Origin: Candidatus Obscuribacteraceae bacterium
Lineage (GTDB): Bacteria > Cyanobacteriota > Vampirovibrionia > Obscuribacterales > Obscuribacteraceae
Direction of reading: 5' to 3'
DNA: 64,000 nt
Assembly: GCA_044229845.1 (NCBI GenBank)
Contig: JBGASG010000005.1
Coordinates: forward strand, 256,001 to 320,000
The translations under genes were made by a program, and so were the position numbers. The number at the start of each line of letters is the position of its first letter. The stretch's first letter is position 1. Shown in pieces: positions 28,658 to 45,367 of the stretch. The notes below the pieces were generated by a model, which was given only the letters and a program-made list of their open reading frames with translations, was not told the DNA's origin and did no database searches.

Positions 28658-30139
28658 ATGGATATCGCCATCCCGCTCGATCCCAGCTCGACAACTCCTT
28701 TGCACGTACAACTTTACGAAGGGCTGCGAAACGCCATTGTCATTGGCCGCCTGGTTCTAGGACAGCGGTTGCCTTCGACACGGGAAATCTCTAAATCGCT
28801 CGGCATCGCGCGGGCGACGGCCAGCGAAAGCTACGCGCAGCTGCTCGCGGAAGGCTATATCAACACCGTCGACCGGTCGGGCACTTTCGTGTGCTCGAAA
28901 CTACCCGAGAGCCACATCCGTATAGACAATCCCCGCCAGGCGCCCACGCGCCCCGATGGACAGCGCACTGCCTCGTCATGGACGCCGCGGGAACGCTTTC
29001 ATTTATCTGATTACGGCAATGCCGTGGCCGATTGCGGATCGCTAGTGGCGGAGACGCGCATCAGTCTCGGTTGCCCGGCCTTTGATAACTTCCCGGCTTC
29101 AGACTGGGCGCGCATTATGAACCGCCATTTCAAGAATGCCGAACGGGGATTGCTGGACTATTCGATTGACGTTCTCGGTTACCGCCCGTTGCGCGAAATC
29201 ATCTCCGAATGGTTGAAGCAAGCCCGCGCCGTCAACTGCCATCCGGATCGCATCATTATTACGTCCGGGTCGCAGCAGGCACTAGATCTGGTGGCACGCG
29301 TTTTCGTCAATCGTGGCGATGAATGTGTCGTCGAGCATCCGGTGTTTTTAGGCATCAAACAGATACTCACCGCCAACGGTGCTCGGCTGCGTCCGGTGCC
29401 GGTCGACGAGGATGGGTTGCAAACCGACAAGCTGCCCGGCAAGGACGAGGGCATCAAGCTCGTCTACGTTACCCCTTCGCATCAATACCCCACTGGTTGC
29501 GTCCTTTCTATGGAACGGCGGCGGCAACTTCTGGATTGGGCCAACCAATCTGGTGCCTTCATTCTGGAAGACGATTACAACACCGAGTTTCGTTACGGCG
29601 CCCGTCCGCTGCCCTCGTTGCAGGGCATGGACGAGTCGGATTGTGTCATCTATACGGGCACCTTTTCGAAGAGTCTTTTCCCGGCGTTGCGCCTGGGCTA
29701 TCTGGTGCCACCAGAAGGACTGGTGGATATCATGGCTGATGCCAAAGTGCTCTCCGATAGACAGAGCCCGCTGCTCGAACAGTATGTGCTCGCGGATTTC
29801 ATGCGCGAGGGACTCTTCGAGCAACATGTGAGGCGTATGCGCGCCCTCTATGAAGAGAGACACCAGACTCTCTTGAAGTCTTTCAAGGAACATTTCGGTG
29901 ACCGCGTGCGCATATTCGGTGAAGAGGCCGGCATGCACGTTTTACTGCGACTGGACCTGGGTTTGAGCCGCGATGAAATACTGGATCGCTCCGGTGATTT
30001 CAGCCTCGAACTGGTGAGCACCAATCCTTTCTATATTGAAGAACCACCGGCGGTGCCCGAGTTTCTCGTCGGCTTTACCAACTACACACCGGCAGAAATC
30101 AAAAGCGCCGTCGAAAAGCTTGCCAAGGCACTCGTGTAG
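28658..30139 (+). CDS. GntR/MocR-family PLP-dependent transcriptional regulator
   Basis: N-terminal wHTH (RLPSTRE), YVTPSHQYPTG, EDDY, GTFSKSLFPALRLGY. Confidence 0.95.
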   Translation: MDIAIPLDPSSTTPLHVQLYEGLRNAIVIGRLVLGQRLPSTREISKSLGIARATASESYAQLLAEGYINTVDRSGTFVCSKLPESHIRIDNPRQAPTRPDGQRTASSWTPRERFHLSDYGNAVADCGSLVAETRISLGCPAFDNFPASDWARIMNRHFKNAERGLLDYSIDVLGYRPLREIISEWLKQARAVNCHPDRIIITSGSQQALDLVARVFVNRGDECVVEHPVFLGIKQILTANGARLRPVPVDEDGLQTDKLPGKDEGIKLVYVTPSHQYPTGCVLSMERRRQLLDWANQSGAFILEDDYNTEFRYGARPLPSLQGMDESDCVIYTGTFSKSLFPALRLGYLVPPEGLVDIMADAKVLSDRQSPLLEQYVLADFMREGLFEQHVRRMRALYEERHQTLLKSFKEHFGDRVRIFGEEAGMHVLLRLDLGLSRDEILDRSGDFSLELVSTNPFYIEEPPAVPEFLVGFTNYTPAEIKSAVEKLAKALV

Positions 30140-30548
30140 CCAATTATCGGACATGAATAACCGACGCATAAACAGCCTTTGTCAGTGGCTAAATTTGATT
30201 ATCCGTGTTGACAAGTTCAAGATTTAATTTTGCTGATCTCAAGTTTGTCACCAAAGATGGTGGCTCGCAAAACCCGCTGTAGGTGTGGTTTATAACCACT
30301 GGACATCTGTCGTCGATATGCTGACAATTCACGTGACGGCTCTTTGCGGAACAAATACAAACATTTCGCCTATGTGCGGAATTGTCGAATGCCCGTACCG
30401 ATGAGCTTTTGCGGTGACTGACAAATGGCTGCAGTTGTGGTGTGGTTAAAAGCAAATATAGACCTACGCAAGAAAATGGGTAAAATTGGTTTGTCCTGCG
30501 GCCTGCTGGGTCCAAGGAAGTTCAGATTGCTAAGAGATGGAGATTTGC

Positions 30549-30941
30549 ATGTTTAAGAAGTTAGCGACCTCCTTTTTGCTAGCCTCGGCTCTAGTTGGCG
30601 GTATTGTTTCTCCGACGTTCGCTGCGGATGAAACCACTTTCCAATCAGTCGTAATGTTTCCCGTGCGCCTGCTCGGTTCAGGCGTGGGCGCAGTAATTGG
30701 CGTTCCGCTGGGAATCTTCAAGGACAGCGTAAAAGGTTTTGGTATGGCCGCCGATTGGACAGCCGATGCGGTTGGCGATAAAGACAACAAAGTTTCGCAA
30801 ACGGTCGGTTGGATCGTGGGCGGACCGATTGGTGCTGCCGGCGGTGGCGTTTATGGTGCGTTTGACGGAATGTGGCATGGTATGAGCACCGGCTACGAAA
30901 AACCGTTCAGTTCCGATTCCTTCACCTACAAAGATGAATAG
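30549..30941 (+). CDS. Secreted glycine-zipper protein, paralog 1
   Basis: GGAG RBS, signal peptide, PVRL, GxxxG repeats, GYEKPFS. Confidence 0.8.
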   Translation: MFKKLATSFLLASALVGGIVSPTFAADETTFQSVVMFPVRLLGSGVGAVIGVPLGIFKDSVKGFGMAADWTADAVGDKDNKVSQTVGWIVGGPIGAAGGGVYGAFDGMWHGMSTGYEKPFSSDSFTYKDE

Positions 30942-30981
30942 CGTCCAACAAATGCTGGTAAAGGACTAACGTACAGATATA

Positions 30982-31012
30982 AACCGAGGGTGGTTTGATA
31001 CCATCCTCGGTT
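30982..31012 (+). other. Intercistronic hairpin without a U-tract
   Basis: AACCGAGGGTGGT-TTGAT-ACCATCCTCGGTT, a 13-bp stem with one G-U pair. Confidence 0.6.
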
Positions 31013-31031
31013 CCACGTGGTAAAGAGGCTT

Positions 31032-31421
31032 ATGAACAAGAAATTCCTTATTACTCTGATAGCCAGTGCGCTTACTATGGGAGCCGCGTTGCCGACATTC
31101 GCCGACGACTCGTCCCTCGATGATTTTGCTTCACTCGCCGGCACCTCGACGGCACTGGTAATCGACGTTCCTCAGGCGATGATTGTGGACACGTTGTGGT
31201 GGAGCCCTCTCCATGCGCAGCGTTCGCTCGCAGGTCATTTTGGTGATGACAAAGGTTTGACGCAGAACGTAGCAGCCTTCGTTCTTGGCGTACCGTGGGG
31301 CATGGTATGGGGCATCCCATCCGGCGCTCTGCGTGGTGCCAAGCATGCTTGCAGCTCGGGCTGGGAAAAACCCTTCAGCACCGAGTCTTTCATGGTTATC
31401 AACCAGGAAGAAAGCAAATAG
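31032..31421 (+). CDS. Secreted glycine-zipper protein, paralog 2
   Basis: Signal peptide, DVP, FGDDKG..QN, GWEKPFS. Confidence 0.8.
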   Translation: MNKKFLITLIASALTMGAALPTFADDSSLDDFASLAGTSTALVIDVPQAMIVDTLWWSPLHAQRSLAGHFGDDKGLTQNVAAFVLGVPWGMVWGIPSGALRGAKHACSSGWEKPFSTESFMVINQEESK

Positions 31422-31457
31422 TTCGGCTTTGAAGCAACATCTAGAGACGGTGAAATT

Positions 31458-31865
31458 ATGAAAAACTTGACCAAGGTTCTCGGAGTAACGGCAATGGTGA
31501 TGGCATCGGCCATCGCTCCCTGCCTTGCTCTTGATTACGAAGCCAAGCCAGTCAATTGGGTTCTTCAAAGCCCTGTCAGATTGGTTGGAGCGTTGACCGG
31601 CGTTGCGGTTTCCGGTGGCATGATGGGACCCATCAACCACGGTTACGGCGGCTTCGTCAAAGGCACGCACCACTGGGCTGAAAAGTTCGGTGATGAAAAA
31701 GGAATGGGACAGAACATGGCTGCTGCGCCTACCTTCGGCGTCGGCGGTATTGTTGTCGGTTCCGGCTACGGCGTCCTCAGCGGTATCAAGAACGGCTGGA
31801 GACAGGGCTGGGAAAAACCATTCAGCAGATGGTCCTACTTGAACACATACCAAGAAGGTAAATAG
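31458..31865 (+). CDS. Secreted glycine-zipper protein, paralog 3
   Basis: Signal peptide, PVRL, FGDEKG..QN, GWEKPFS. Confidence 0.8.
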   Translation: MKNLTKVLGVTAMVMASAIAPCLALDYEAKPVNWVLQSPVRLVGALTGVAVSGGMMGPINHGYGGFVKGTHHWAEKFGDEKGMGQNMAAAPTFGVGGIVVGSGYGVLSGIKNGWRQGWEKPFSRWSYLNTYQEGK

Positions 31866-31896
31866 TGGTCCGCCACGCTAGAGAGAGAGAATAAAG

Positions 31897-32346
31897 ATGC
31901 TTAAAAAGACGATCCTTACTTCCATGCTGGCAGCGGCGGCGCTTGTTTCTACAGTCGCACCTTGCTTTGCATATCCTGAGCGCCCAGAAGACTGGCGCGT
32001 TCAGTACGAAATCTACTACTTCCCAGTACGTCTGATTTCGATGGCTACCGGCATCCTCTGGGATGTACCAACGGCAGCCTTCCAAGATGGCATCAAAGGC
32101 GCCATCGGTGGAACCAAAGTCGTTGCCCGCAAACTGGGCAAAGAAGATGGTTTCTATGAATTGTCGGCCGGCGGCTTGGTTGGGGGACCAGTTGGTCTCG
32201 CCAGCGGCGCTGCTTACGGATTGCTTCACGGCTTCGGCTATGGCACCTGGCACGGCTTCATGGGCTACCAGAGCCCCCACAATGGCAGCCACGTCAGCCT
32301 GTTCCAGGGCAGACAATATGTCGTTCCTTACGATGACGACTATTAA
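31897..32346 (+). CDS. Secreted glycine-zipper protein, paralog 4
   Basis: Signal peptide, FPVRL, DVP, VGGPVG...G..YG...G; lacks EKPFS. Confidence 0.8.
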   Translation: MLKKTILTSMLAAAALVSTVAPCFAYPERPEDWRVQYEIYYFPVRLISMATGILWDVPTAAFQDGIKGAIGGTKVVARKLGKEDGFYELSAGGLVGGPVGLASGAAYGLLHGFGYGTWHGFMGYQSPHNGSHVSLFQGRQYVVPYDDDY

Positions 32347-32375
32347 ACCCGGACCCTGATGAGTGCAAATCTCAA

Positions 32376-32408
32376 GCAAGCCCCGGCTCCGGCTGGGGCT
32401 TGCGCTTT
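32376..32408 (+). terminator. Hairpin closing the four-gene cluster
   Basis: GCAAGCCCCGGC-TCCG-GCTGGGGCTTGC followed by a short T run. Confidence 0.6.
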
Positions 32409-32482
32409 GCAGGGGTGTACGAGAACATGGAGGTGTCCTCTTTTTCCCTTAGGGCGCAACAACACTTGTGTTGTTTTTGTTT

Positions 32483-32578
32483 TGTCGACTGTATCCGTTG
32501 TTGACTGGTCGTCAGATGCAATGGTCATACAGTTAACCAATCGACTCGTCGACTGGTACACCAGTCGTATTGTTAACA
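32483..32578. promoter_or_regulatory. Array A of phased 8-bp AGTCGACT-like boxes
   Basis: In-register octamers TGTCGACT, gtatccgt, TGTTGACT, GGTCGTCA, gatgcaat, GGTCATAC, AGTTAACC, AATCGACT, CGTCGACT, GGTACACC, AGTCGTAT, TGTTAACA. Confidence 0.75.
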
Positions 32579-32791
32579 GGTGAAATCATCAAGTGGAAAC
32601 GCTGTTTTCGTCAATCGCCCCTGAATCTGAGTCTCCATGCTGATTTTGCATAGAGGGCCGCAATGGCATGCCATCATATATGGTGGCACGGCGTGGATTT
32701 CCGACGGCAGACAAAATACGGGCGATTCCGTAAACTGATTAGGGGTTTCCCGTGAGAACATTCGGGCCATACTGATGGCAGTGCTCAGCAC

Positions 32792-34417
32792 ATGAATGCG
32801 GTTGCCCCTCACCTATTGGAGCCGGAGAAACTCTCCATGTTACGCGAAGATTGGCTTCCCGCCACGTTCTCCAAGGTTATCCACAAGCGCAGGGAATACC
32901 TGCGAATCTCGCAGGAAGAGCTGTCACAGCGCAGCGGACTGCATCGCACCTATATCAGCGACGTCGAGCGCGGCGCGCGCAATGTTTCTCTCAAAAACAT
33001 GAGCAAGCTGGCTGCGGCGCTCGAAATCTCGCCCTCAGCCTTGATGCGCTGGACAGAAATGCGAAATGCGAACGCGCTCGGCGGGTTGATTCTCGAACCG
33101 GAATTCCTCGCCTACCTCGATGGTATGGGCGCAGGCTACGTGCTGCTCGAACAGGGCGGTGCCGTCATCAATGCCAACGGAGTCTTTGCCGAGTGGCTTG
33201 CACGCTCAATCGAGACGCTTGTCGGTACTAGATTTGTTGAAACGGTCGCCGACGATGACCGCGCCAAAGTGCAAGCGGCCCTGGAAGCCGTCCGGGTCGG
33301 CACCTTCAAAGACGCACTGAAAGTGCGTCTGAAATTAGTGTCGGGCGAGTTGCTCCCTGTTCTCCTGCAACTCGACCCAATCAAGGATGAATCTGACGAG
33401 TACTCGATGACCCGCATCAATGTGTCTCAAAGTTCGACCGCAGCCGGCGCATCCTCGTCAGCAAGCGCCGAGTTACTGCCATTGTCCCGGATCGATGCTG
33501 CAAGTCTGGCGCCGCATGCGTTGCACAAGGCCATTAGCGGCGGCATTCCGATGGCGGCGATGGCAATCAAGGGCGATGTAATTTCGTTTTGGAATGAAGC
33601 AGCCCACGACCTCTTTGGATACTCCGTCAGCGAGGCGCTGGGCGCACCGGTGACTTTGATTGTTCCGGAGGCGAGGCTGCCTGAGCTCAATGATGTTTCT
33701 GCGCGTGCCCGCCAGGGATTTGCGCGACAGCAGCTGGATGTGCGCTACAAGTCGAAATCCAACTCACCGCTCAACCTCTCCATGACGTGCGTGCCGGTGC
33801 CTGATCTCGCTGATGAGCCGCAATTGCTTTGTTTCTTCAGCTGTGCGTCGCAGAGATCCAGTGGCACTGATTTCTTGTCGCTGCAACTAGCGGTGGTATC
33901 AGCTCTGGAAGAGTCAGAGTCGTTCACCGAAGCGGTGCCCGGCTTGCTTGCTGCTTTCGCGGGAGACCGCTTCCACTTTGCGATGCTCTGGTGGGTCGAT
34001 CCGGACAGCGGTCATTTGCGCCCCTTCGGGCACACCACCATCGATTTGCCACCAGATGCAGTGCAATCTTTGACCGAAGGCATTCGGTTTCTGAGCAACG
34101 GACTGCCCCGCATCGTCTGGGAAACGCGGCAACCCTTCTGGATTCCGGACGTCAGCCGAGAGCCTCGGTCGCGCCCGCAAGTCAGTGCCAATCAACTGGG
34201 ACTGGTGTCGGGCGTCTGGTTCCCGATCACCGTCGGACGAGAGGTCATCGGTGTTTTCGAGCTTTTGTCGAAGGACTCGCTGCCCCAGGACGATCAGACA
34301 ATTGAAGTCTTCAGTTCGCTGGGTTCCCGCATCGGGCGCAGCATCCTGCGAAGCGGCGAACGCCCGCGTATAAGTGAAACCGGCACCACCAGCCAATCAA
34401 AGCAAGTTGTAACCTGA
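32792..34417 (+). CDS. XRE-HTH + PAS + PAS + GAF one-component regulator
   Basis: SQEELSQRSGLHRTYISDVERGARNVSL HTH; PAS motifs (NANGVFAEWL, WNEAAHDLFGYS..EALG); GAF (GLPRIVWETRQPFWIPDV, FPI.VG.EVIGVFEL). Confidence 0.85.
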   Translation: MNAVAPHLLEPEKLSMLREDWLPATFSKVIHKRREYLRISQEELSQRSGLHRTYISDVERGARNVSLKNMSKLAAALEISPSALMRWTEMRNANALGGLILEPEFLAYLDGMGAGYVLLEQGGAVINANGVFAEWLARSIETLVGTRFVETVADDDRAKVQAALEAVRVGTFKDALKVRLKLVSGELLPVLLQLDPIKDESDEYSMTRINVSQSSTAAGASSSASAELLPLSRIDAASLAPHALHKAISGGIPMAAMAIKGDVISFWNEAAHDLFGYSVSEALGAPVTLIVPEARLPELNDVSARARQGFARQQLDVRYKSKSNSPLNLSMTCVPVPDLADEPQLLCFFSCASQRSSGTDFLSLQLAVVSALEESESFTEAVPGLLAAFAGDRFHFAMLWWVDPDSGHLRPFGHTTIDLPPDAVQSLTEGIRFLSNGLPRIVWETRQPFWIPDVSREPRSRPQVSANQLGLVSGVWFPITVGREVIGVFELLSKDSLPQDDQTIEVFSSLGSRIGRSILRSGERPRISETGTTSQSKQVVT

Positions 34418-34465
34418 AAGATGCTGGCGCAGCCGTGTCGCCTGATGGCGATGTCAACTGTTGTT

Positions 34466-34513
34466 TGTCGTATCGTAGTCCGTTTCACTAGTCGACAATA
34501 CGAATGTTGGTCA
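34466..34513. promoter_or_regulatory. Array B of phased 8-bp boxes upstream of the RHH gene
   Basis: TGTCGTAT, CGTAGTCC, GTTTCACT, AGTCGACA, ATACGAAT, GTTGGTCA; an extra out-of-phase TGTCAACT at 34452. Confidence 0.6.
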
Positions 34514-34633
34514 AAATCTGCCGCATCCTCGTGGAACAGAACCGGAGCGAACCGTCAGCAGCCCTTGGCGAATCCGCCGGCGAGTGCTATATTGTGTTCA
34601 GTGCAATTTGTAATCGCGTGAGTACAAAGTGTA

Positions 34634-35227
34634 GTGGGCGAGAAAACATCAAATATCAGCATACGCATCCCCGATGAGTACCGAAAGCGGCTCCAGCTGC
34701 AGGCGGACAAGAAGTCGATTAGCTTCAACGCCCACGTGCAGCGGATTATCGAGATTCATTTGATGAACTCGGGCTTTGGACCCACCTCGGTGACATCAAA
34801 CTCGGGACGGCTTTTCCAGATACGCTGCGAGCCCTATCTCGACAACGTTGACGAAACCACCTGGGCATACTTCATAGATGAGCCCAAGTACGAGAAGGAG
34901 CGCGCCTATTACTTGATCGGTATCGGCAGAACAATTCTGCGCGACTGGCAGGTGAAGGACAAATCCACCGTCTCCAAAGAAGTCGGACTGGCGCTGCTCA
35001 GCTACTACAACAGAAAAGGTTTGGAGGTCGATCGACTCGTCTGGAACCAATATCCCGGACCAGACAACGACGGCCGTCGGGTGCTTCAGGTCGCTGAAGT
35101 GCCCGAGACACTGGAAGAGTTTCTTGATCTATTGATGACCGACAAGTGGACCGACAAATTCGTTTCCCAGGACGAGAAGAGCCAGGATATGCGGAGGGGT
35201 CGACCAGAATCGGCACTGTATCGCTAG
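34634..35227 (+). CDS. Arc/MetJ-type ribbon-helix-helix DNA-binding protein with an unknown C-terminal domain
   Basis: N-terminal NISIRIPDEYRKRLQLQADKKSISFNAHVQRII fits the RHH pattern. Confidence 0.8.
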   Translation: MGEKTSNISIRIPDEYRKRLQLQADKKSISFNAHVQRIIEIHLMNSGFGPTSVTSNSGRLFQIRCEPYLDNVDETTWAYFIDEPKYEKERAYYLIGIGRTILRDWQVKDKSTVSKEVGLALLSYYNRKGLEVDRLVWNQYPGPDNDGRRVLQVAEVPETLEEFLDLLMTDKWTDKFVSQDEKSQDMRRGRPESALYR

Positions 35228-35431
35228 TTTCCCCGTAGTGCGTGAGGACGCACTGACCTATCGATGAATTAGAGCCAGGAGCACCACTCCTGGTGCTAGT
35301 GGCACGCGCGCTGAACACGCGTCTGCCTTTAGATAATGGCGCGAGCCTGACTCGCTCGCGCCTCCAGATCGGTGTACGCGTGCCTGGCACTCGTGCCCGC
35401 GGATTGTGGCGAAAACCTGAGGAGGTTCATC

Positions 35432-36295
35432 GTGCTTGCAGAATTTATCGCGTTATTCTTGTTGTTCTACGTATGGCATGGACTGGGTGTCACCGTCGGA
35501 TACCATCGCCTGATTTCACACCGCTCCTTCTCGTGCCCCAAGTTCGTCGAATACTTCTGGGTGTTGGCGGGATACCTCGCCTTCGAGGGGTCTCCTATCT
35601 GGTGGGCGACAATTCACAGAGCGCACCATCGGCATGCCGACACCAAGCTGGACCCGCACTCACCTCGGTTTGGGCTCTTTCACGCTCACGTCGGCTGGCT
35701 TATGGAAGCCGGTTATCCCGCGCATATCAATCCCGAAACTCAAGCCAAAGATCTGATCAAGGATCCAATCTATAGATTCCTCGAGCAGGGTGGACGGTGG
35801 CAACGAGCGCATCACGTGGCTGCAGTGCTCTGCATCGGATTCCGTTTGGTACTGTGGGCGCTGTGGGGTCCAATCCCGGCGTTGGCAAGTCTTCTAGCCG
35901 GCTTGGCTGTGCAACAGATTCCCTTCATGCTCAACGTCGTTTGCCACCTGCCCAAGTGGGGCTACAAAACATTTGCCGCTGCCGATGACAGCGTCAATAT
36001 CTGGTGGGTGGCGATCCTTGCAATGGGTGAAGGTTGGCACAACAACCACCATGCCAGCCCTGGTTCCGCTAAAACAGGTTTGATGCCGTGGGAATTCGAT
36101 CTCTCCTGGCTGACCATTTGCATGATGAAGCGTCTCAATCTTGTCGGTCGAGTCAATGTCGTCAGTCAAGAGGAGCTGACAATCAAGATGCTCGCCAAAG
36201 CCGCTAAGCAGCGTGCTAAGAATGCTCCCAAACTGCGGACGGCTCGCATCATCCGCGGTGCCCGGCATCTCACCAGTAAGCGAGTTGCATCCTAG
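35432..36295 (+). CDS. Delta-9-type membrane fatty acid desaturase
   Basis: His boxes GYHRLISH, HRAHH and GEGWHNNHH; DPHSP; GGAGG RBS before GTG. Confidence 0.92.
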   Translation: MLAEFIALFLLFYVWHGLGVTVGYHRLISHRSFSCPKFVEYFWVLAGYLAFEGSPIWWATIHRAHHRHADTKLDPHSPRFGLFHAHVGWLMEAGYPAHINPETQAKDLIKDPIYRFLEQGGRWQRAHHVAAVLCIGFRLVLWALWGPIPALASLLAGLAVQQIPFMLNVVCHLPKWGYKTFAAADDSVNIWWVAILAMGEGWHNNHHASPGSAKTGLMPWEFDLSWLTICMMKRLNLVGRVNVVSQEELTIKMLAKAAKQRAKNAPKLRTARIIRGARHLTSKRVAS

Positions 36296-36505
36296 CTTCA
36301 GCGACTCTTAACGACTTTTCAGCCACATCCCTGGACACGATGCTGAGGATGTGGCTGCGTCATACGGAAGAAACTCGATTAGCGTCTTTTTTGCGGTCTG
36401 AAACGCACTGCAGCGCCGCACGCGCTGATAATGTATATTATGTTTCACCGCCGGCGGTGCCGGCGAAATCGCTGGACCTTCGTATTTGCGTTTTAAGGCA
36501 CCTGA

Positions 36506-36967
36506 ATGCGAGCGATCCTCATCATCATACTAGCTGCCTCTCTCTGGGACCCTTCTATGCCCGCAGAGGCGGGTGGGGGTAGTGGGCTGGTCGCCCGGGT
36601 CAATCAATTAATAGACAAGCGCCAGAACGCCGAAGCCAAGAAGTTGGTCGATCAGGCGCTGCGAAAAAATCGTGGCGATGCTCGGGCTCATTTCGCAAAA
36701 GCGAAAATCTATGTATCCGAGGCCAAGATCGATGAAGGTGTCAGCGAACTTCATCAAGCGATTAAATATGACCCGCGCGACGCGGAGGCTTACTACTTGC
36801 TCGGTATTCTTGAGTTCACGCGCGGTCATCAACAAGAGGCAGCTGATGCCTGGCGCGAAGCCATGAAGTACAAACCGTCGCTTCGCCATGCAAAAGATTG
36901 CAAGTGCGGAAGCATCGATTCGCTGCTCAAACAATATCCGCCTCGAAAAAAACGCAAGACCAGTTAG
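36506..36967 (+). CDS. Secreted TPR protein
   Basis: Signal peptide; TPR motifs (AIKYDPRDAEAYYLLG). Confidence 0.8.
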   Translation: MRAILIIILAASLWDPSMPAEAGGGSGLVARVNQLIDKRQNAEAKKLVDQALRKNRGDARAHFAKAKIYVSEAKIDEGVSELHQAIKYDPRDAEAYYLLGILEFTRGHQQEAADAWREAMKYKPSLRHAKDCKCGSIDSLLKQYPPRKKRKTS

Positions 36968-37416
36968 CTGTTGTCGGAGCACAAAAGAGTTTCTTGAATG
37001 AAACGTTTTAGAGCTACCTTGGAAAAGGGAACCAGCAATAGACTGCCGATAGGATAGATGAGTAATCCAAGGGGCAGATAAAGCCAATCCCAGATTGTGG
37101 TGGGGTGAATGATGAACGCTTCCATCCCCAATCCGATAACAAGGAACGCCAGGGTCACCGCGAGTCCTAGCGGTTGCGCAAAGATTGTCGATCCGTGAAT
37201 CTCGACCGCAACCTTAGTTCCTGCGCCGTCGGATGTTGCTTTCGCCGAGAGCAGTGCGTAAGAGTTTGCATAATCAACGCGACACGAAAAGCCTAGTTTA
37301 TCGCCGGTCGCATCGCATGGACCGATCCGCGGAGCCATCTCCTTGCGGCTTGACTGCAGCTGTTCGATCAACTGATTGGGCGGCAACGGCACTTCAATCT
37401 CAAATGAGTCAGGCAA
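36964..37416 (-). CDS. Hypothetical membrane protein (2 TM)
   Basis: ORF fills the gap; two hydrophobic helices near the C-terminus. Confidence 0.5.
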   Translation of the reverse strand: MPDSFEIEVPLPPNQLIEQLQSSRKEMAPRIGPCDATGDKLGFSCRVDYANSYALLSAKATSDGAGTKVAVEIHGSTIFAQPLGLAVTLAFLVIGLGMEAFIIHPTTIWDWLYLPLGLLIYPIGSLLLVPFSKVALKRFIQETLLCSDNS

Positions 37417-37622
37417 GACCGGCTCCAGTGGCGAGACAGGAGAAGTATAGTCTGGTTAGACAACAGTCGCTTCCTGGGACAACCCGCTGCCCACCTCTAG
37501 CCCTCTGCCAGCGCGAAAATTACGATTTCATTCGTGATATCCCCATTGAGGACGTCCATCGGAGTCGATAACCTGGGTCTATTCCCTCACCGTGACCCAG
37601 CAAAGCTTTGAGGACCATAGGC

Positions 37623-40568
37623 ATGGCGGACGATCCGAGTACCGCGGTGCGTCAGTCTGACGCGCCCGCGCACGACAATATCTTCACGGAATTTGGGAGC
37701 TCGTTCTGGAGATCCGGCATTCAGAAGCCCCTTGCGGGCACTGGACAGCTGGTCGGACTGAGGACAGAAGAAGTTAAGACCGACGATAACGTCACGGGTG
37801 CTATGAAGGCAGCCAACATTGCGGGCGTTGCGGCGGGGCAATTGTTCGATATGGGACTGCTCGCGATTGGCGGCGGGAAAGTATTTAAGATGCTCGGGCT
37901 GCAATCCAAATTTGAATCGCAGATGGCCAGCACTTTGTTCATCAACGGCTTTACTGGTGCCATGTATGGTGGCGTTCTCACACCGGTAGCCGAAGGCGAC
38001 AGCCAGTGGAGCCGCATCGGACATGCCACCACCGAAGCCGGCACCTTCATGACGCTCGGTGCCGTTTCTCATCGCATGAATCAGGCTTTCGGCAAGGGAT
38101 TGCTCGCCACCCAGGTGGCTGATCTTGAAGCCGGCACTTTCAAGACGACTGCCATGCAATTTGGCGCCGGTGTTGGCGACCGCGCAATAGTGCATGCAGG
38201 AAGCGGCGCCGCGGCCGGCATCATCAACACTCAACTGGATACGATGATGCATGGTCATCTCGTTGCCGAACCGGACCAATACATCAACAACGCAGTCGGT
38301 TGGGCGCTCGGCAACGTCGTCCTGGGCGAAGGCGTGCATCAGGTCAAGGCAGGCACGCTGCTTGGTTTGAGAGAAACGCGCAAATTCCTCGGCACCACCG
38401 CCGAAGCAGAAGCAGCCGGCGACGCCAATGTGGCGCGCGCCAGAAGAGGCGGAGAGCCGCCGGAACTTGATCTGCGCAGCCTCAAAGAAATTGCTGCCAG
38501 TGGTGACGAGGCGCGCGTTAGAAAGCTGGTCGAACTCTATTATCCCGCGTTGCAAAAGGCGTTCCCGCTGCCGGGTGAAATCGAAAGCGTCGAAACGTAC
38601 GTCAAATATTTGATGGACCCCGAAATGAAGTGGGAAATGGAGCAGTTGCTCGGTCCCATTCAGGGCGGGCTGCAGTATCAAATTTTGCCCATCGAAGGCG
38701 GCACCAACATCAAGAACGCCGGCTGGCTCGAGCACATCTGGGTTGCCGATCACGTCCGCGAAGGCGGCTATGGTTCAGGCTTGCTCAAACACGTTCAGGG
38801 GCAGGTTGCCAAAAAGGGCGGCGATGTCACTTTCTGGGAATGGAACAACCCCGACAAGATGTCCGCGGCCGAACTGTTGGAAGACGCCAAAGGCGGTATC
38901 ACCACTCAAGACCGCGTCGGCTACTGGGCCAATCGTGGTGCTTATGTCGCCGTCGTCAAATCAACCGGCGAAATCGCACCATACTCGCAGCCCGGCATGG
39001 ATGGTCAGGAAGCGGTGCCGTATCTGTCGCTGGCATGGAGCAAGCCAGGCGGGCTCGATGGACAGACCATCCTGAAGAGCGACTATTTGAAGGTGCTGAC
39101 GTCCGCGCACAACACCATTACCGAAACGGCAAGCGATGCCACCGTGGCCGAGTACAAAGCCGCATTGGATGCGCTTCCGGACACCGAATTCCAGTTCATG
39201 AAACTGGCGGATTACGTCAAGCAGCGCACACAACTCCTCGAACAAGCGCGCCAAAACAATCCTGTGGAAGCCGATCAGCGCATCGCGCGCTGGCAAGGTG
39301 ATGACTTTACGCCGATTCAAGCACCGCGTCGCATGTTCGATATCGGTGATGCACCGGTTAACGATGAAGTGGCGAAAGCCGCTCAGTATCAGGCTCAGTC
39401 GACGTCTCCGTGGATGCGCACCGTCGATGCCAGCAAGCGTTTTCCGACGCTCACGGGTGAAGCCAACGCAGATACGGTAGTGGTCGGGTCCGGCATTGTC
39501 GGTCAACAGATCGCCGATACATTGGCCGGCATGGGACAGCGTGTGATCGTCCTGGAACGAGGCAGACTCGGCTCCGGCACATCCAGCATGATGGGAGCCA
39601 TGAATACCTTTGTTCCGGACACCGGCTTCGAAGCCATGGCCGAAGCTTACGGACCGCAGTTTGCCGAAATCATGCAGAGATCGATGGCGGCGCGCACTGC
39701 GACGGCTCGTCTCGGCATGCGCTACGGCGACTTCCAACCTGTAGATTCGTACAATATCGGCTACTCGCCAAATCACGAAGGCATCGCTGCCGAAGTGCGT
39801 CTGGCTTCCAAGTTCGACCCGTCTGTCCGTTTCTTGACGGGCGGCGATGCTGAAAAAGTATTTCCAACCGCACGCTCCGTCGGAATCTTCCCGGGTGAAG
39901 GCAACCTCAACCCGCGGCGCCTGCTGCTGGGATTGGCTAATTCCGGTCGCTTCACCGTTTTCGAAGATTCGCCCGTGGTTGGTGTCAGCCAGGCCAAGAC
40001 TGGTGATGGTGCCGATGTATTCACGCCTGCTGGCGTCGTCCACGCCAACAAAGTGATCTTTGCGACCAACGGTACGGTGACACCGTTCTCGTACCTCAAC
40101 CAGCACCTGACGCCTGTCCAGACATTCGCCAACGTCGGCGACATCAAAATGAAACTGCCCGGCAATTTCTTCGATGCGCCTGACGCAGCCGTCAGCGGCG
40201 AGCAGATACCGTTCTCCTACTGGCGCCAGTTCGGTCTGCCGCAGTTCGGTCCGACAGAAACGCTGATCGGCGGCACCGCCAAGTTCCTGGATACCGGCAA
40301 AGCTATGCCGTTTGAGCCGCAATTGAACGAAGTGACGCAGCGGTTGTTCGGCGTCAACGGACGCAATCAAGGCACCGCGCTGATCTTCACGTCCTATCGT
40401 GACGGTGTGCCGATTTATGCCATTCATCCTGAGTTTCCAGCCATGTCGATAGCCACCGGCGCTGGTGGCACAGGACTGGTGGGCGGTGGACTGCTGGCGC
40501 AGGCAGCGGCTATGGAAGCCAAAGGCAAAGTAGATCAGTTGCTGTCGCCCTATCGGTTCAACAACTAG
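37623..40568 (+). CDS. Multidomain protein: Gly/Ala-rich hydrophobic N-terminal region + GNAT-like domain + FAD-dependent (DAO-family) oxidoreductase
   Basis: WLEHIWVADHVREGGYGSGLL (GNAT motif A); VVVGSGIVG...VIVLERGRLGSGTS (FAD-binding); VFEDSPV, ANKVIFATNG, DGVP, TGAGGTG. Confidence 0.8.
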   Translation: MADDPSTAVRQSDAPAHDNIFTEFGSSFWRSGIQKPLAGTGQLVGLRTEEVKTDDNVTGAMKAANIAGVAAGQLFDMGLLAIGGGKVFKMLGLQSKFESQMASTLFINGFTGAMYGGVLTPVAEGDSQWSRIGHATTEAGTFMTLGAVSHRMNQAFGKGLLATQVADLEAGTFKTTAMQFGAGVGDRAIVHAGSGAAAGIINTQLDTMMHGHLVAEPDQYINNAVGWALGNVVLGEGVHQVKAGTLLGLRETRKFLGTTAEAEAAGDANVARARRGGEPPELDLRSLKEIAASGDEARVRKLVELYYPALQKAFPLPGEIESVETYVKYLMDPEMKWEMEQLLGPIQGGLQYQILPIEGGTNIKNAGWLEHIWVADHVREGGYGSGLLKHVQGQVAKKGGDVTFWEWNNPDKMSAAELLEDAKGGITTQDRVGYWANRGAYVAVVKSTGEIAPYSQPGMDGQEAVPYLSLAWSKPGGLDGQTILKSDYLKVLTSAHNTITETASDATVAEYKAALDALPDTEFQFMKLADYVKQRTQLLEQARQNNPVEADQRIARWQGDDFTPIQAPRRMFDIGDAPVNDEVAKAAQYQAQSTSPWMRTVDASKRFPTLTGEANADTVVVGSGIVGQQIADTLAGMGQRVIVLERGRLGSGTSSMMGAMNTFVPDTGFEAMAEAYGPQFAEIMQRSMAARTATARLGMRYGDFQPVDSYNIGYSPNHEGIAAEVRLASKFDPSVRFLTGGDAEKVFPTARSVGIFPGEGNLNPRRLLLGLANSGRFTVFEDSPVVGVSQAKTGDGADVFTPAGVVHANKVIFATNGTVTPFSYLNQHLTPVQTFANVGDIKMKLPGNFFDAPDAAVSGEQIPFSYWRQFGLPQFGPTETLIGGTAKFLDTGKAMPFEPQLNEVTQRLFGVNGRNQGTALIFTSYRDGVPIYAIHPEFPAMSIATGAGGTGLVGGGLLAQAAAMEAKGKVDQLLSPYRFNN

Positions 40569-40596
40569 GTGCGCGGTAAGCGCCAGTTAAATCGAA

Positions 40597-41232
40597 TCAG
40601 TTAATCGCCTGGTGCTGCTGCTTCTGCTGCCCGACGAGGATATCTAGAATCGCCGGTTCAATCCAGCCGCGGCGAATCAATAGCTCGCCGAGACTGTTCA
40701 TAGAAGTGCGTTGATCGAAGAGCACGATTTTGATCATGTCTGGATTGACGATTTCCATAACCATGGCGCGCCGTGTCGTATCGTCGACTGGCCGCGGCTC
40801 TCCGGCGAGGAAGATGTGCTGCCCCATCAACAGTCCGTCAAGCTCACTTTGCGACAGAAGCCGCTTCTCTTGCAGTATCTGTCCCAGCGGCAGGTCGATA
40901 TCTTGCTGCTCGTTGATGGCGGCTTCCAACTCATCCAGAGTGATAATGCCGGCGGCAACACAGATGTGGCCAAGCTTTGGATTGTAATTCTCTTGCTTGA
41001 CACTGCGTTCGTTTTCAACTTCTTGCTTGTGCTTTTCGCGGCTCGGGAGCTGATTTAGCACGTCATACGCGGCTTTGATTTTTATGCGCGCTTTGGCTGC
41101 TTGCCAGGCTGCAGGGCTTCCGGGCGTGAAGTTCGACTCATCAAAAGCTTTGCTCAAATACCGGTACGCCTCTTCCACAGCCAGATCGGAAGCGGTTTCC
41201 GGAATTCCCAGGACGACAAAATGGTTGGGCAA
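40597..41232 (-). CDS. J-domain-like protein with MshEN-like repeats
   Basis: HFVVLGI...AYRYLSKAFD...IKAAYDVL is J-like without HPD; KLGHICVAAGIIT..EL..A...Q, LGQILQEK, LGELLIRRGWI. Confidence 0.75.
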   Translation of the reverse strand: MPNHFVVLGIPETASDLAVEEAYRYLSKAFDESNFTPGSPAAWQAAKARIKIKAAYDVLNQLPSREKHKQEVENERSVKQENYNPKLGHICVAAGIITLDELEAAINEQQDIDLPLGQILQEKRLLSQSELDGLLMGQHIFLAGEPRPVDDTTRRAMVMEIVNPDMIKIVLFDQRTSMNSLGELLIRRGWIEPAILDILVGQQKQQHQAIN

Positions 41233-41349
41233 GGCTCTTTACCACTGGAACATACGTGTCTTTTAACTATACCCGGAAGGGACCTAAATGCCATCCTCTC
41301 TTGCGTTTACAAGGACTGAACAGACTTTAGGCGACATGATTTTACCGAT

Positions 41350-41485
41350 AGTCGTATTGTCGACGAGACGACCAGTCTACTGATACTTAATACAAATGTT
41401 GTATCAGTCGACGACTTGACAGTTCTACTAGTCGACCTGAGTTACCGTTGACCTGTCCAAAAGACACCAATTCGACAGTTGGACA
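41350..41485. promoter_or_regulatory. Array C of phased 8-bp boxes upstream of SulP
   Basis: AGTCGTAT, TGTCGACG, AGACGACC, AGTCTACT, three poor units, AGTCGACG, ACTTGACA, GTTCTACT, AGTCGACC, tgagttac, CGTTGACC, TGTCCAAA, AGACACCA, ATTCGACA, GTTGGACA, all in one register. Confidence 0.78.
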
Positions 41486-41631
41486 GGCGGACCCATCAAT
41501 GCCAGGGCAGGCGCAGCAAGCATAGTATTAGCGCTGCGCCCTTTCGGCGATTTGCAGCTTCCTGTATCGTTTAAATTCCTGCCACTAAACGGTTGCCGAC
41601 TAAATTCTCGGCGCCTCGCACTCTCGTAGCC

Positions 41632-44088
41632 ATGCAAATTCCAACCACGAAGAAACAACGCCTGATTGGATTTGACCTGCCATTTCTCATGGAAGAGTGG
41701 CGGCAAATGTTCAACCCGGCAAGTTTGCCTAAAGATATCTGGGCTGGCACCACTGTCGCACTGGTGGCATTGCCTCTGAACCTGGCTCTGGCAGTGGCTG
41801 CCGGGGTCCCACCCGGGGTTGGTATCGCTACTGGTATCACAGCCAGCGTCATCGCTTCCATGCTCGGCGGACAGAAGTATGCTATTACCGGACCCGCGGC
41901 AGCCATGGCTGTGATCCTGGTGCAGATCACGGCGCGCTACGGCATCAGTGGGATCTGGCTGGTCGGGCTTCTCGCCGGCATCATGCAGGTTACCGCTGGG
42001 TTGCTGCGTCTCGGCCGATTGATCTCTTACATACCGATGCCGGTGATTACCGGTTTTGCAAATGCAATCGGCATACTGGTGGCATTTAACGCCCTGGATG
42101 GTTTCATGGGCATGCCATTGAAGAAGCATGCTCCAGGCGCTGCGCCGGCTGTAGCGCATGAGATCATCCCCAAGTTTATCCTTGATGTTCAGCACCTCGT
42201 CCAGGCCATACTGAAAGGGCAGGCAAATCACGACGCGCTGATCATCGGCGGATTGACCCTCGCGGTCGCAGTCGTAGTACCGCGTTTAACTAAAGCAATT
42301 CCCAGTCAGCTGGTGGCGATCATTGTCGGTACGGTGGCATCTGTGGTGCTCGGCTATCAAATCCCGCGAATTGTTGATGTTGCGCCGCTTACTGACGCAT
42401 TGCCGGTTCTGCAGATGCCCGTCCTGCCATGGGATGCGTTCGGTCTACTCTTTGCCGCCGCCTTCACGGTGTTCATGCTGGGATCGATCGAATCGCTGCT
42501 GTCGGCATCGGTGGCAGACGGGATGACGATGTCCAAAAAACATCATGCCGATCAAGAACTGATCGGACAGGGCTTCGCAAACGTGTTCATGCCTTTCGTG
42601 GGTGGAATACCTGTGACGGGCGTCATTGCGCGTACTGCGATCAATGTCAGGGCAGGCGCACAAACCAGACTGTCCGGAATTGTGCATGCTGTTGTGTTGA
42701 CTGTACTGATTGTGTTTCTCTCAAAATATGCCGAGCAAATCCCTCTGGCAGCGCTGTCGGCGATTCTCATTCTGACTGGCTTTCGATTGTTCGAATGGGA
42801 CGAAGGCCGCGAAATCTGGAAAGCTTCGAAGTTGGAAGCGTGGGTGATGATACTCACAACAGTAGTCTCGGTGCTGGTCGATCTGACAGCCGGTGTGCTC
42901 GCCGGGCTGCTCTTCACGTGCGGACTGTTCATCAAACAAATGAGCGAGTTGCGTCTGGTGTCGGCAGCTGAGACAGACGGTGGTGAGAATCTCTCGCCGG
43001 CTCTCAACATGCCGTGCTGCAAATTTGCTCAGACATTTTTGGTCGATGGACCGCTGTTTTTCGGTGCGGCTGAACGCTTTACTGAAAACATTCTGCAGGT
43101 GCAGGACGTGCGCGTGCTGGTTCTCGACATGAGCCAGGTCAATCATATGGATTTGACCGGAGTAGAAACGCTCCTTTCGGTGCACCGCCAACTGGAGCGC
43201 AAAGGCGCGCGCATGGTGCTGGCGGCATTGCCGACTCAGCCGCTTGAACTGTTGCGGCGTACGAAAGCGATGAACGAAATCGGCGAAGAAAACATCTTCC
43301 GCGATCTGACGCAAGCCAACATCGAGGCCCATGTTGCGCTGCTCAGCAGCAGCTGTTCTGATTGCGCAGTCGGACTAGATCCCAGCAAGAAGCCAGCCGG
43401 TCCACGTGACTGCAAGATGCGCTCCGCTCTGCTGGCGGACAACAGTCCGCTGATCCAGGTAGTCAAAGATCGCCTCTTGAAGAAGGATGTTGTGGCACCG
43501 CCTGTAGTGGCGGACGTACAGGGGCGGCTGGTAGTGGTGGATGACGAGTCTAAGATCCCCGGCTTTCTCAGGGGCAGTCCTATCGAAGTATTGTTGCGGG
43601 CACAAAACTTCCGCGGCACCGAAATTCCATATGTTGCCAGACCTGAGCTTTTAATCGGTATGTGTGTCGACTATGGCAAGACAGTCATGTTGCCCAAAGT
43701 ATGGGCGCATGTTATACGGCGTGAAGGAGCCAGCATGCAGGGCAGCGAATTCGCTATTGCTCTGTCTGTAGCGGACGGCGTCAAGTACATGGCATTGATC
43801 GCGCATGATGACTGCGCCATGGGCAATACAGTCGAGCACAAAGACGCTTTCGTCAAAGCGATGACCGGCAACCATGGCTGGGATCCGGAGCAAGCAAATG
43901 GTTTCTTCGATATATACGTTCGATCTCCAGATCTGAATACCGAAATCGACTTCATCATGGAAGAGAGCGCTCGGTTGCAGCGGCTTTTCCGCGGTATTTT
44001 GGTGATACCACTTGTTTACAAAACTGAGAGCGACCAGCTGTATTTGGTCAGTGAGTGGCTATCCGGGCGCTTGGAAACTGCCGGCTAA
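41632..44088 (+). CDS. SulP/SLC26 anion (probably bicarbonate) transporter + STAS + beta-carbonic-anhydrase-like domain
   Basis: DIWAGTTVALVALPLNLALA, GPAAAM, ESLLSA, QELIGQG.AN; STAS GPLFFGAA..DLTG; C-terminal IGMCVD...IAHDDC. Confidence 0.9.
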   Translation: MQIPTTKKQRLIGFDLPFLMEEWRQMFNPASLPKDIWAGTTVALVALPLNLALAVAAGVPPGVGIATGITASVIASMLGGQKYAITGPAAAMAVILVQITARYGISGIWLVGLLAGIMQVTAGLLRLGRLISYIPMPVITGFANAIGILVAFNALDGFMGMPLKKHAPGAAPAVAHEIIPKFILDVQHLVQAILKGQANHDALIIGGLTLAVAVVVPRLTKAIPSQLVAIIVGTVASVVLGYQIPRIVDVAPLTDALPVLQMPVLPWDAFGLLFAAAFTVFMLGSIESLLSASVADGMTMSKKHHADQELIGQGFANVFMPFVGGIPVTGVIARTAINVRAGAQTRLSGIVHAVVLTVLIVFLSKYAEQIPLAALSAILILTGFRLFEWDEGREIWKASKLEAWVMILTTVVSVLVDLTAGVLAGLLFTCGLFIKQMSELRLVSAAETDGGENLSPALNMPCCKFAQTFLVDGPLFFGAAERFTENILQVQDVRVLVLDMSQVNHMDLTGVETLLSVHRQLERKGARMVLAALPTQPLELLRRTKAMNEIGEENIFRDLTQANIEAHVALLSSSCSDCAVGLDPSKKPAGPRDCKMRSALLADNSPLIQVVKDRLLKKDVVAPPVVADVQGRLVVVDDESKIPGFLRGSPIEVLLRAQNFRGTEIPYVARPELLIGMCVDYGKTVMLPKVWAHVIRREGASMQGSEFAIALSVADGVKYMALIAHDDCAMGNTVEHKDAFVKAMTGNHGWDPEQANGFFDIYVRSPDLNTEIDFIMEESARLQRLFRGILVIPLVYKTESDQLYLVSEWLSGRLETAG

Positions 44089-44171
44089 TCGTATCTTAGA
44101 GGATTGCACTAGATTCCAAGGCTGTTTGCGGCAATGATGTAATCCTCTTGTCTACAAACTAATGAGCGCGA

Positions 44172-45341
44172 ATGACTAAGGAAAAACTGGTTTATCTGGC
44201 TATTGCCATCGTTTTCTGTGGAGCCCTGCTGTCGTATTTTGCGAGACCAAAAGCGCCTCACCTCGAACTGGTATCACCGGAACAAATCTCACCGGGAGTG
44301 ATCGCTGAATACGCTTCCGCCAACAGCAACCTTGCGGAGCACGTTCTCAACTCCTATGGACTGGCTCTTGTTCTCGTGCAGAGCTCTTATTCGCCGGATA
44401 ACGCCACCGCTCTTGAAGCCTTGCGCTCGTGGGCTCGCGATAACTATGTGGCTGACAAAGGTTTCTTGCATCCGATCTCGCTGGAACAACATGAAAAGCC
44501 GGCCGACACCGTATTTGGTGCTTTCACCTACAACGTCCTCGGTGGACCGTATTATTTCTTGCGCAGCAAGGTCGGCGATCTGGTGCGCTCGCGCATCGCG
44601 ACATTCCAGGAGTCGCAGCGCTACATCAGTGTTTCGGACGCGTACTTCGAACTTTTCGGCGACGATCCGGAAGCCGCAGTCTTGTTGGCTCGTTATCAAT
44701 CAGACCGGGCCAAACTCTCACTCGACGTCGTGATGTCGAGTCTCGTTTGGGGAGTGTTCACGGTCGGTTCTTTGATCTACATCTTCACCGCCGAGTGGCG
44801 AAAATATCGATTTATTCGCCTGCAGAAGTGTCTGGCATTTCTCTGGTTGATGCTCGGCGCTTCCTACTTTATTTCAGCCACTGTGCATAATGAGGTGGGT
44901 ACGGTTCTCTCTGCGCTGCTGGCCACCGCCGTTGGACTGTATTCGCTGCGTCCCTGGTTCCTTCACATCAATGCGCACGGCATCGATGGTGTCAAATTCC
45001 TGCACACCAATCCACTCTTGATCGCTTTGTTTACATGGGCAACGTGGTCCTTGATCTGCATGCAGATGCTGAGCTGGATGAAGACGCCGTTGACTGCAAC
45101 TCCAGATCCGTTGACCTTGTTGTTCTCCGCGGTGACCGGTGACTTCATGCACGATCACTCCGCCGAGAAGGCAGTGGTGAAGCATTTCATTGCCTTGCTC
45201 TGGGTGGTCTGTGTGGTCTGGATCATGTGGGTCCGGCACCGTGATGGACAGTCTTTCGTGGAAGATCGACTGATCGAACATTTCCGAGAAGAAGGTCCGA
45301 TTGCAGGCGACCGCGAGCCGGCGTTGACCTCGCGCCGCTAA
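44172..45341 (+). CDS. Hypothetical multi-TM protein with a periplasmic N-terminal domain
   Basis: 389-aa ORF with an N-terminal TM and several C-terminal TM helices. Confidence 0.7.
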   Translation: MTKEKLVYLAIAIVFCGALLSYFARPKAPHLELVSPEQISPGVIAEYASANSNLAEHVLNSYGLALVLVQSSYSPDNATALEALRSWARDNYVADKGFLHPISLEQHEKPADTVFGAFTYNVLGGPYYFLRSKVGDLVRSRIATFQESQRYISVSDAYFELFGDDPEAAVLLARYQSDRAKLSLDVVMSSLVWGVFTVGSLIYIFTAEWRKYRFIRLQKCLAFLWLMLGASYFISATVHNEVGTVLSALLATAVGLYSLRPWFLHINAHGIDGVKFLHTNPLLIALFTWATWSLICMQMLSWMKTPLTATPDPLTLLFSAVTGDFMHDHSAEKAVVKHFIALLWVVCVVWIMWVRHRDGQSFVEDRLIEHFREEGPIAGDREPALTSRR

Positions 45342-45367
45342 GTGGTGCGTCAGCCCGGCAGGCAGTC

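Follow-up and report, generated by a model that had tools for sequence, protein, structure and literature searches.

The window analysed here is a 64,000-nucleotide stretch of a Candidatus Obscuribacteraceae genome (contig JBGASG010000005.1, positions 256,001 to 320,000, forward strand; order Candidatus Obscuribacterales, Melainabacteria), taken from a 5.16-Mb assembly that is 88% complete (GCA_044229845.1, G000 below). Our subject is three intergenic arrays of abutting 8-base-pair (bp) boxes that it contains, none of which is assigned a strand. Array A (32483..32578), with 12 nGTnnACn units that share a register, comes after a terminator-like hairpin belonging to the preceding gene and ends about 210 bp ahead of a gene for an XRE(HTH_3)-PAS-PAS-GAF protein (32792..34417, plus strand), which separates it from array B. 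Array B (34466..34513) is short and lies downstream of the XRE gene, ahead of the promoter of a gene for a 197-amino-acid (aa) protein with a ribbon-helix-helix (RHH)-like N-terminus (34634..35227, plus strand), downstream of which is a fatty-acid desaturase gene (35372-36295). Array C (41350..41485) has 17 units and occupies the divergent region between a SulP-STAS transporter gene (41593..44088, plus strand) and the gene for a 211-aa protein that joins a J-domain fold to an MshEN-like module (40597..41232, minus strand). The latter, referred to here as the J-like gene, is accompanied by arrays in other genera. The SulP gene is followed by one for a 389-aa membrane protein with no Pfam family (44172..45341, plus strand).

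The units in all three arrays are related to AGTCGACT, and the best box is GTCGAC. Read in octamers, array A runs TGTCGACT GTATCCGT TGTTGACT GGTCGTCA ... AGTCGTAT TGTTAACA, and array C begins AGTCGTAT TGTCGACG AGACGACC AGTCTACT. A first-pass annotation of the window had described a single 8-bp register in the three regions, and both the register and the units that it listed were seen on this reading. Two longer shared words that it had picked out are also present: GACTGGTCGTC at 32503 and TCGTCGACTG at 32546, whose reverse complements occur at 41367 and 41405, respectively. Array C carries an exact copy of a 14-bp family core, GTCGTATTGTCGAC, at its J-gene-proximal end (41351..41364); nowhere else in the assembly does this core occur exactly. 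The corresponding word of array A, GTCGTATTGTTAAC (32564..32577), differs from the family core at two positions and lies at the array end that faces the interior of the locus. The cores of arrays A and C, at the right and left ends respectively, thus face inward. In array B the core reads GTCGACAATACGAA (34491-34504), and a further, degenerate one, GTCGTATCGTAGTC, runs the opposite way. This array is the weakest of the three, rests mostly on these two words, and is an extra internal site. Copies of the core with at most one mismatch number four in the assembly against 1.5 expected, and one of the four is that of array B.

The sole genome of the same genus that we compared, G001, is collinear with the window over 29001-45999 at 90-93% identity, except that it lacks 37461-40590. 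It has all three arrays. The ends of array A and the whole of array B are conserved, the middle of array A is rearranged, and the exact family core stands at the core position of array A. The centre of array C is the palindrome ATACAAATGTTGTAT. An inverted repeat, CTGATAC ... GTATCAG (41380-41408), encloses it and is kept in G001; this repeat resembles a palindrome found upstream of RHH genes (described below), but has a centre of 3 bp instead of 1 bp.

The arrays were scored with a weight matrix of eight columns derived from 282 units in 22 arrays of other genera, a choice made because circularity was to be avoided when scanning G000. The genome scan used windows of 10 phased units, with periods of 7, 10, 11 and 13 bp and the reversed genome at five periods as controls. 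Arrays A, C and B scored 51.1, 46.5 and 27.6 bits, respectively; the next best window in 5.16 Mb reached 19.3 bits and the highest control 23.3 bits. Each region was also compared with 2000 dinucleotide-preserving shuffles, none of which reached the observed score: array A scored 57.7 bits at period 8 (shuffle mean -3.4, maximum 19.6), array B 29.4 bits (maximum 18.1) and array C 73.6 bits (maximum 22.7). At periods 6, 7, 9 and 10 array A did not exceed 6.0 bits, and over the three arrays the score stayed at or below 9.8 bits. The octamer matrix scan and the shuffle-based phasing test that the first-pass annotation had proposed therefore place the arrays far above shuffles and all controls, and A, B and C are the only such arrays in the assembly. 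Exact GTNNAC matches fall in a single phase in array A (6/6) and array C (5/5), while array B has only two such matches. Tandem Repeats Finder gave no report at the arrays; they are phased degenerate boxes and not recent tandem copies. Simpler criteria were less discriminating. Requiring at least 4/6 matches in at least 5/8 units gave 33 loci with a period of 8 and 29-44 with periods of 7, 10, 11 and 13, and this lenient criterion was replaced by the matrix scan because its genome-wide noise was too high. A cruder scan for at least 4/8 phased hexamers with at least 5/6 matches to GTCGAC found seven loci at period 8 and one, none and none at periods 7, 10 and 11; on reading, only arrays A and C among the seven were array-like.

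An 8-bp phase runs through the arrays generally. Inside arrays, 120 of 132 distances between successive exact GTNNAC matches are multiples of 8, and the share of matches in the modal phase is 0.90 at period 8 compared with 0.29-0.51 at periods 6, 7, 9 and 10. Among indels inside related arrays, those of 8 bp were in excess (30, versus 15 for 7 bp and 7 for 9 bp), a weak test of phase constraint because the gap penalties were lax and the pairs are non-independent. In the 282-unit matrix the strongest positions of the unit nGTnnACn are T2 (0.75), A5 (0.73), C6 (0.69) and G1 (0.59), and the centre favours CG. T2 and A5 are also the best conserved positions within units: among 62 non-independent pairs of related arrays the mismatch rate was 0.11 at T2 and 0.10 at A5, while the two spacer positions reached 0.20 and 0.23 and the centre 0.19. 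A single register extends over 6 to about 35 units, depending on the locus; that of locus L048, for example, comprises 17 regular units. At locus L091 (1994-2305) about 35 phased units show a 16-bp super-period with the super-unit GGTGAACT GTCGGACG, from which it follows that tandem duplication can lengthen arrays by multiples of 8 bp.

The 14-bp core is near-invariant and stands far above the rest of the array in conservation. It amounts to two adjacent boxes and can also be read as GTCG-N6-CGAC. Its placement is polar: in arrays upstream of the J-like gene it falls in the J-proximal third in 28/34 cases, in downstream arrays it falls in the J-proximal half in 18/21, and from the core weaker boxes extend outward.

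We compared 104 genomes of the family, 31 SulP loci and 52 loci of the J-like gene, the last found with an alignment of the J-like protein. Full-length SulP orthologs occur in 50/104 family genomes. At 16/31 loci an exact 10-mer, GTCGACAATA or TATTGTCGAC, is found 120-300 bp ahead of the SulP gene, with a chance expectation of about 0.003 per locus, and 10/31 SulP loci have at least 5/8 phased boxes, a level above the 4/8 that is the most unrelated loci reach. Among the J-like loci, 36/52 have at least 5/8 phased boxes and 33/52 an 11-mer of the core. The matrix finds an array of at least 24 bits at 49/52 and two or more arrays at 31/52, counts that are partly self-trained in that the 22 training arrays come from among these loci. 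At three loci outside the training set (G013, G041 and G016), arrays flank the J-like gene on both sides without exception. SulP loci that lie away from the J-like gene (L035, L036, L045-47 and L051-52) have no array, and genus g16, in which no SulP ortholog was found in any of six genomes, has arrays nonetheless. Genera with array-bearing genomes are g1, g9, g16, g19 and g21; genomes of g5 and g49, and the J-like loci of g41, are free of arrays. In both G063 and G092 the J-like operon has one exact 14-mer core to either side, and the genome has no further exact copy; single-mismatch matches elsewhere fall in coding sequence. Relatives of the 389-aa membrane protein (cluster c1), and not SulP, are directly divergent from the J-like gene at 25/52 loci. 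Arrays thus accompany, and usually bracket, the J-like gene across many genera of this uncultured family, and SulP is not the anchor.

These comparisons bear out the expectation of a met-box-like operator in so far as the arrays are non-random, phased and conserved beside orthologous genes in other genera. The search for arrays at orthologs, which the first-pass annotation had suggested, succeeded at the J-like and SulP genes and failed upstream of the RHH gene, where none of 13 loci in other genera (L003-L015) reached 5/8 phased boxes. The regulon that it had drawn, with the desaturase, the XRE gene and a SulP-carbonic anhydrase fusion under a CO2 theme, is not supported, as the conserved association is with the J-like gene and not with SulP. 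Nor was the fusion itself borne out: the 250-aa C-terminal domain of the SulP protein has no Pfam family, and no carbonic anhydrase family matched it at E values up to 1.

The comparison across genera also bears on whether the arrays are functional at all. They could be decayed tandem repeats or the remnants of mobile elements, and the recent 16-bp tandem expansion at L091 and a reverse transcriptase gene beside one locus would fit such an origin. We find this hardly credible, as the same core keeps the same position relative to the J-like gene across many genera whose proteins are 30-50% identical, conservation is periodic and holds position by position, and the genome has no further copy.

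The J-like gene itself is found in 94/104 genomes of the family and in both genomes of the sister family that were searched, and in none of 118 genomes from other families of the class. The model of its product has a predicted local distance difference test (pLDDT) score of 91.9. Residues 1-78 adopt a J-domain fold, with target-normalised template modelling (TM) scores of 0.6-0.87 in Foldseek and root-mean-square deviations (rmsd) of 1.4-2.2 over 66-74 residues, at E values of only 0.04-0.6; structural comparison with VIA gave Z-scores of 7-9.4. The Pfam DnaJ family is matched by 18/43 relatives, and the HPD motif, which serves Hsp70 stimulation, was not found in the translated sequence. Residues 83-141 superpose on the N-domain of MshE (5htl_B; Z-score 11.1, rmsd 1.4 over 58 residues, 31% identity) and on the GSPII-B domain of PilF (8pdk_A; Z-score 9.7, 33% identity), and are predicted to form a module that binds cyclic diguanylate (c-di-GMP). 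The motif RLGxxLxxxGxIxxxxLxxAxxxQ in the protein presumably corresponds to that of MshEN. The family is acidic, with a median isoelectric point (pI) of 4.7 and values below 7 in 41/43 members.

Just downstream of the J-like gene, loci L110 (3565-5049) and L115 (3569-5053) carry an RVT_1 reverse transcriptase gene that probably belongs to a group II intron.

The J-like, RHH and desaturase genes are covered by contigs from four metatranscriptome runs (three studies). Cover is absent over the arrays, SulP and most of the XRE gene, which is uninformative on expression as contigs cannot show absence. Over the J-like gene the contigs of the four runs extend up to ends at 41172-41246. These ends fit a promoter-like site, ATGGCA-17-TATAGT (41266..41294, minus strand), which would put the predicted start about 90-230 bp downstream of array C, contig ends being weak evidence of a start.

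The arrays might instead act as RNA, namely as untranslated-region elements bound by an RNA-binding protein or as attenuators, or else as overlapping promoters of the extracytoplasmic-function (ECF) sigma type (AAC ... CGT). Such a role is suggested by genus g16, where the upstream array runs towards the J-like start codon and stops 5-40 bp short of it, and by mildly negative fold z-scores (-1.6 to -2.9 on either strand). The units TGTTGAC, GTGAAC and CGTC/CGTAT may also resemble ECF -35 and -10 words. However, the core occurs in both orientations relative to genes, the two strands fold about equally well, and the predicted structures vary by locus and are not conserved. No RNA contig covers any array in the four runs, although contigs cannot prove absence. 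Rfam returned no family at gathering score over 32000-42000, and its one weak row (32376-32403, a terminator hairpin) lies outside the arrays. We consider a role as RNA or as promoters highly improbable. Because the orientation of the core varies, Rfam lacks a match, and the folds are unremarkable and unconserved, the target of recognition is likely double-stranded DNA.

The binder proposed in the first-pass annotation was the RHH protein at 34634, with one dimer on each box co-regulating its own gene, the desaturase, the XRE gene and SulP. Its gene has a promoter-like site, TTGGCG-17-TATATT, followed by a conserved TGCAATTTGTA / GTACAAAGTGTAG element (34565..34633, plus strand); RNA contigs of two runs begin at 34624. 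Array B lies about 50 bp ahead of this site. The N-terminus of the protein is RHH-like by Pfam (HicB, E value 0.0012; FitA-like RHH, E value 0.08) and by its model, in which residues 7-42 form two helices with pLDDT 72-85 against a mean of 54.9. The array C centre ATACAAATGTTGTAT, moreover, resembles the palindrome TACAAnTTGTA conserved upstream of RHH genes, so that contact of the RHH protein with array C is conceivable in this genus. Across the family, however, the protein does not behave as the partner of the arrays. Its orthologs (69-99% identity, 86/104 family genomes) have a different conserved motif upstream and no array: a -10 box GCTATAGT, the palindrome and one to three copies of ACTACAAA just before the start are present at 11/11 loci inspected outside the genus, and the desaturase follows at 12/14 loci. 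No RHH protein was detected in G090 (95% complete), G094 (98%) and G019 (89%), three genus g19 genomes that keep their arrays (L053, L054 and L059). Conversely, genus g5 (3/3 genomes) has the RHH protein with neither the J-like gene nor an array. Thus, with its own motif, its pairing with the desaturase and its mismatched co-occurrence, the RHH-desaturase pair is a separate module that in this genus is found between arrays. It is likely a family-wide autoregulated desaturase operon, and the TGCAATTTGTA / GTACAAAGTGTAG element is likely the operator of the RHH protein itself. That this protein binds the arrays is, on these grounds, very unlikely, and the proposal is not supported.

A different repeat is found about 250-290 bp upstream of the RHH gene at locus L013 (G021), where five 7-bp tandem copies of CCGTTAA stand between inverted GTTCAAC/GTTGAA; its period is unrelated to that of the 8-bp arrays.

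The alternative binder that had been named, the XRE-PAS-PAS-GAF protein, would recognise the 14-bp core as a helix-turn-helix (HTH) dimer and sense a signal through its PAS and GAF domains. The geometry of the core suits a dimeric HTH operator, since GTCG-N6-CGAC is an inverted repeat with half-sites about one helical turn apart, and the gene sits between arrays A and B. The full-length protein is nevertheless confined to G000 and G001 among 41 genomes searched, whereas the core and the arrays span many genera. Its nearest HTH-only relatives are small paralog-like proteins (46-62% identical), and the locus of the best of these (L018) has no array. A 14-bp dimer site would, in addition, leave up to 35 phased boxes unexplained. 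We regard this protein as a very unlikely binder and its gene as genus-specific cargo. A small XRE paralog elsewhere that escaped recognition is conceivable.

About 100 bp upstream of the start of the XRE-PAS-PAS-GAF gene, and kept in G001, is the near-palindrome CCATCATATATGGTGG (32671-32690), which possibly serves the gene as an operator or contributes to its promoter.

Since the arrays are real, unique in the genome and recurrent around the J-like gene, they are likely protein-docking platforms. With a probability of roughly 60%, we propose that they are conserved cis-elements of the Obscuribacterales that accompany and usually bracket the J-domain/MshEN-like gene and serve as cooperative platforms for a sequence-specific DNA-binding protein. 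A small dimeric protein would read one GTnnAC box in one major groove, as the beta-ribbon of an RHH-type protein would. It would nucleate on the two-box core and spread in phase over the weaker boxes, with neighbours 8 bp apart in contact, following a logic like that of MetJ. The arrays would likely act in pairs, which might be bridged into a loop, and the whole would govern how the J-like gene, and the membrane-protein or SulP operon divergent from it, are transcribed.

Several observations weigh against this proposal. No DNA-binding domain was detected among the recurrent neighbours, in ten Pfam-scanned cluster representatives drawn from open reading frames (ORFs) of at least 70 aa at the 52 loci. 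These representatives are TPR, deaminase, receiver, GNAT, reverse transcriptase or metallo-beta-lactamase proteins, or have no family. The J-like protein is itself an unlikely binder, being acidic and composed of a J-domain fold and an MshEN-like module. When 25 loci were scanned out to 1.5 kb from their best J-like copy, 17/25 had an array and the other 8/25 had none of at least 24 bits. In some genera, such as that of G063, the second array lies between two convergent gene ends, outside a promoter region. Array C of G001 is 93% identical to that of G000 and differs by two 1-bp deletions and one 8-bp deletion, and the single register is broken along it because of these deletions. Alignments of related arrays contain many gaps of 1-3 bp, a number inflated by the lax gap penalties. 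Matches to GTCGAC guided the choice of the matrix, and all sequences compared are metagenome-assembled genomes, of which the related ones are non-independent.

With the RHH and XRE proteins unsupported and no DNA-binding domain among the recurrent neighbours, the binder is probably encoded elsewhere in the genome. RHH_1 (PF01402) has eight matches elsewhere in G000 and none near the arrays.

The closest known counterpart to the arrays is found in Gammaproteobacteria, where the RHH repressor MetJ binds tandem met boxes. In both systems 8-bp quasi-palindromes centred on CG follow one another without gaps and in register; the single boxes are degenerate and the signal is carried by the whole array, a layout that implies one dimer per box with contacts between neighbours. 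The two also differ. The box here is nGTCGACn or nGTnnACn rather than AGACGTCT, the arrays have 6 to about 35 units instead of 2-5, they have a polar conserved two-box core, and they come in pairs around one gene. Their neighbours are the J-domain/MshEN-like, SulP, membrane-protein, XRE-PAS-GAF and RHH-desaturase genes, and not methionine genes. MetJ and met boxes are the subject of a comparative paper (PMC4239095). In G000, at 88% completeness, no match to MetJ (PF01340) was found at E values up to 0.1, with a positive E. coli control.

Long phased arrays of short repeats are also known from plasmids, as the ParG boxes of TP228, the omega heptads of pSM19035, ParR/ParB repeats, and parC1 and parC2, which flank par2 of pB171. 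Such arrays can flank their operon and are cooperatively bound into a filament-like complex. They are the model for the main rival to a promoter operator, in which the paired arrays would be architectural or centromere-like, with a filament or loop serving positioning or insulation. The two arrays bracket one small gene unit with their cores inward, certain second arrays sit between convergent gene ends, and lengths of 17 to about 35 units occur, all of which would suit this role. The period of 8 bp and the GTnnAC skeleton, however, set the present arrays apart from the plasmid ones. They are chromosomal and vertically inherited within one order, on contigs of 3.2 to 7.0 Mb (G090, G063 and G092), with gene order inherited across genera. 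Among the recurrent neighbours (ORFs of at least 70 aa, the ten Pfam-scanned representatives) no ParA- or ParM-type nucleoside triphosphatase, no small DNA-binding gene and no adjacent RHH/ParA-ParM pair was seen, and the divergent promoter region always holds one array. We therefore judge a purely architectural role unlikely.

The pairing of the arrays recalls a third group of systems, the paired looping operators of gal (OE/OI), lac (O1/O2/O3) and deo. As in those operators, the regulated unit lies between two sites that have a recognition core in common and are separated by 1-9 kb or less. In gal, lac and deo, however, each site binds a single dimer or tetramer, whereas each site here is a long phased array, and looping here is hypothetical. 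A tentative extension of the cooperative-platform proposal, possible although we would not call it probable, is that the two inward-facing long arrays are coated by a filament-forming protein and bridged, to give a switchable DNA loop that encloses the c-di-GMP-receptor-like J-domain gene. If this were true, the loop-enclosing device would be specific to the order and have no described counterpart on bacterial chromosomes. The arrays work like met-box, ParG or omega arrays and belong to none of these, and it is unusual for polar arrays to bracket a single gene.

Two further features of the window lie apart from the arrays. The 3.1-kb stretch missing from G001 (37461-40590) contains a 986-aa ORF (37608-40568) with a C-terminal FAD-dependent oxidoreductase (DAO) domain. 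Further downstream, a HipA-like kinase gene (48215-49477; HipA_C and Couple_hipA domains) stands behind a 105-aa ORF, and the pair (47901-49477) looks like a HipBA-type toxin-antitoxin system.

To our knowledge, nothing is known experimentally of gene regulation in the Melainabacteria (Vampirovibrionia), the non-photosynthetic sisters of cyanobacteria. The literature found on Obscuribacter and Melainabacteria deals, to judge by titles and abstracts, with phylogeny, ecology and metabolism, and none of these titles or abstracts announced a paper on regulation. The arrays are an unusually clear and conserved cis-element that is readily synthesised, and they carry the sharp predictions of 8-bp phase dependence, nucleation at the 14-bp core and pairing; they would consequently make good bait with which to fish out the binder. 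They also point to a conserved module made up of the J-domain/MshEN-like protein, a membrane protein and, in some cases, a SulP transporter, which may link c-di-GMP signalling to transport in this lineage.

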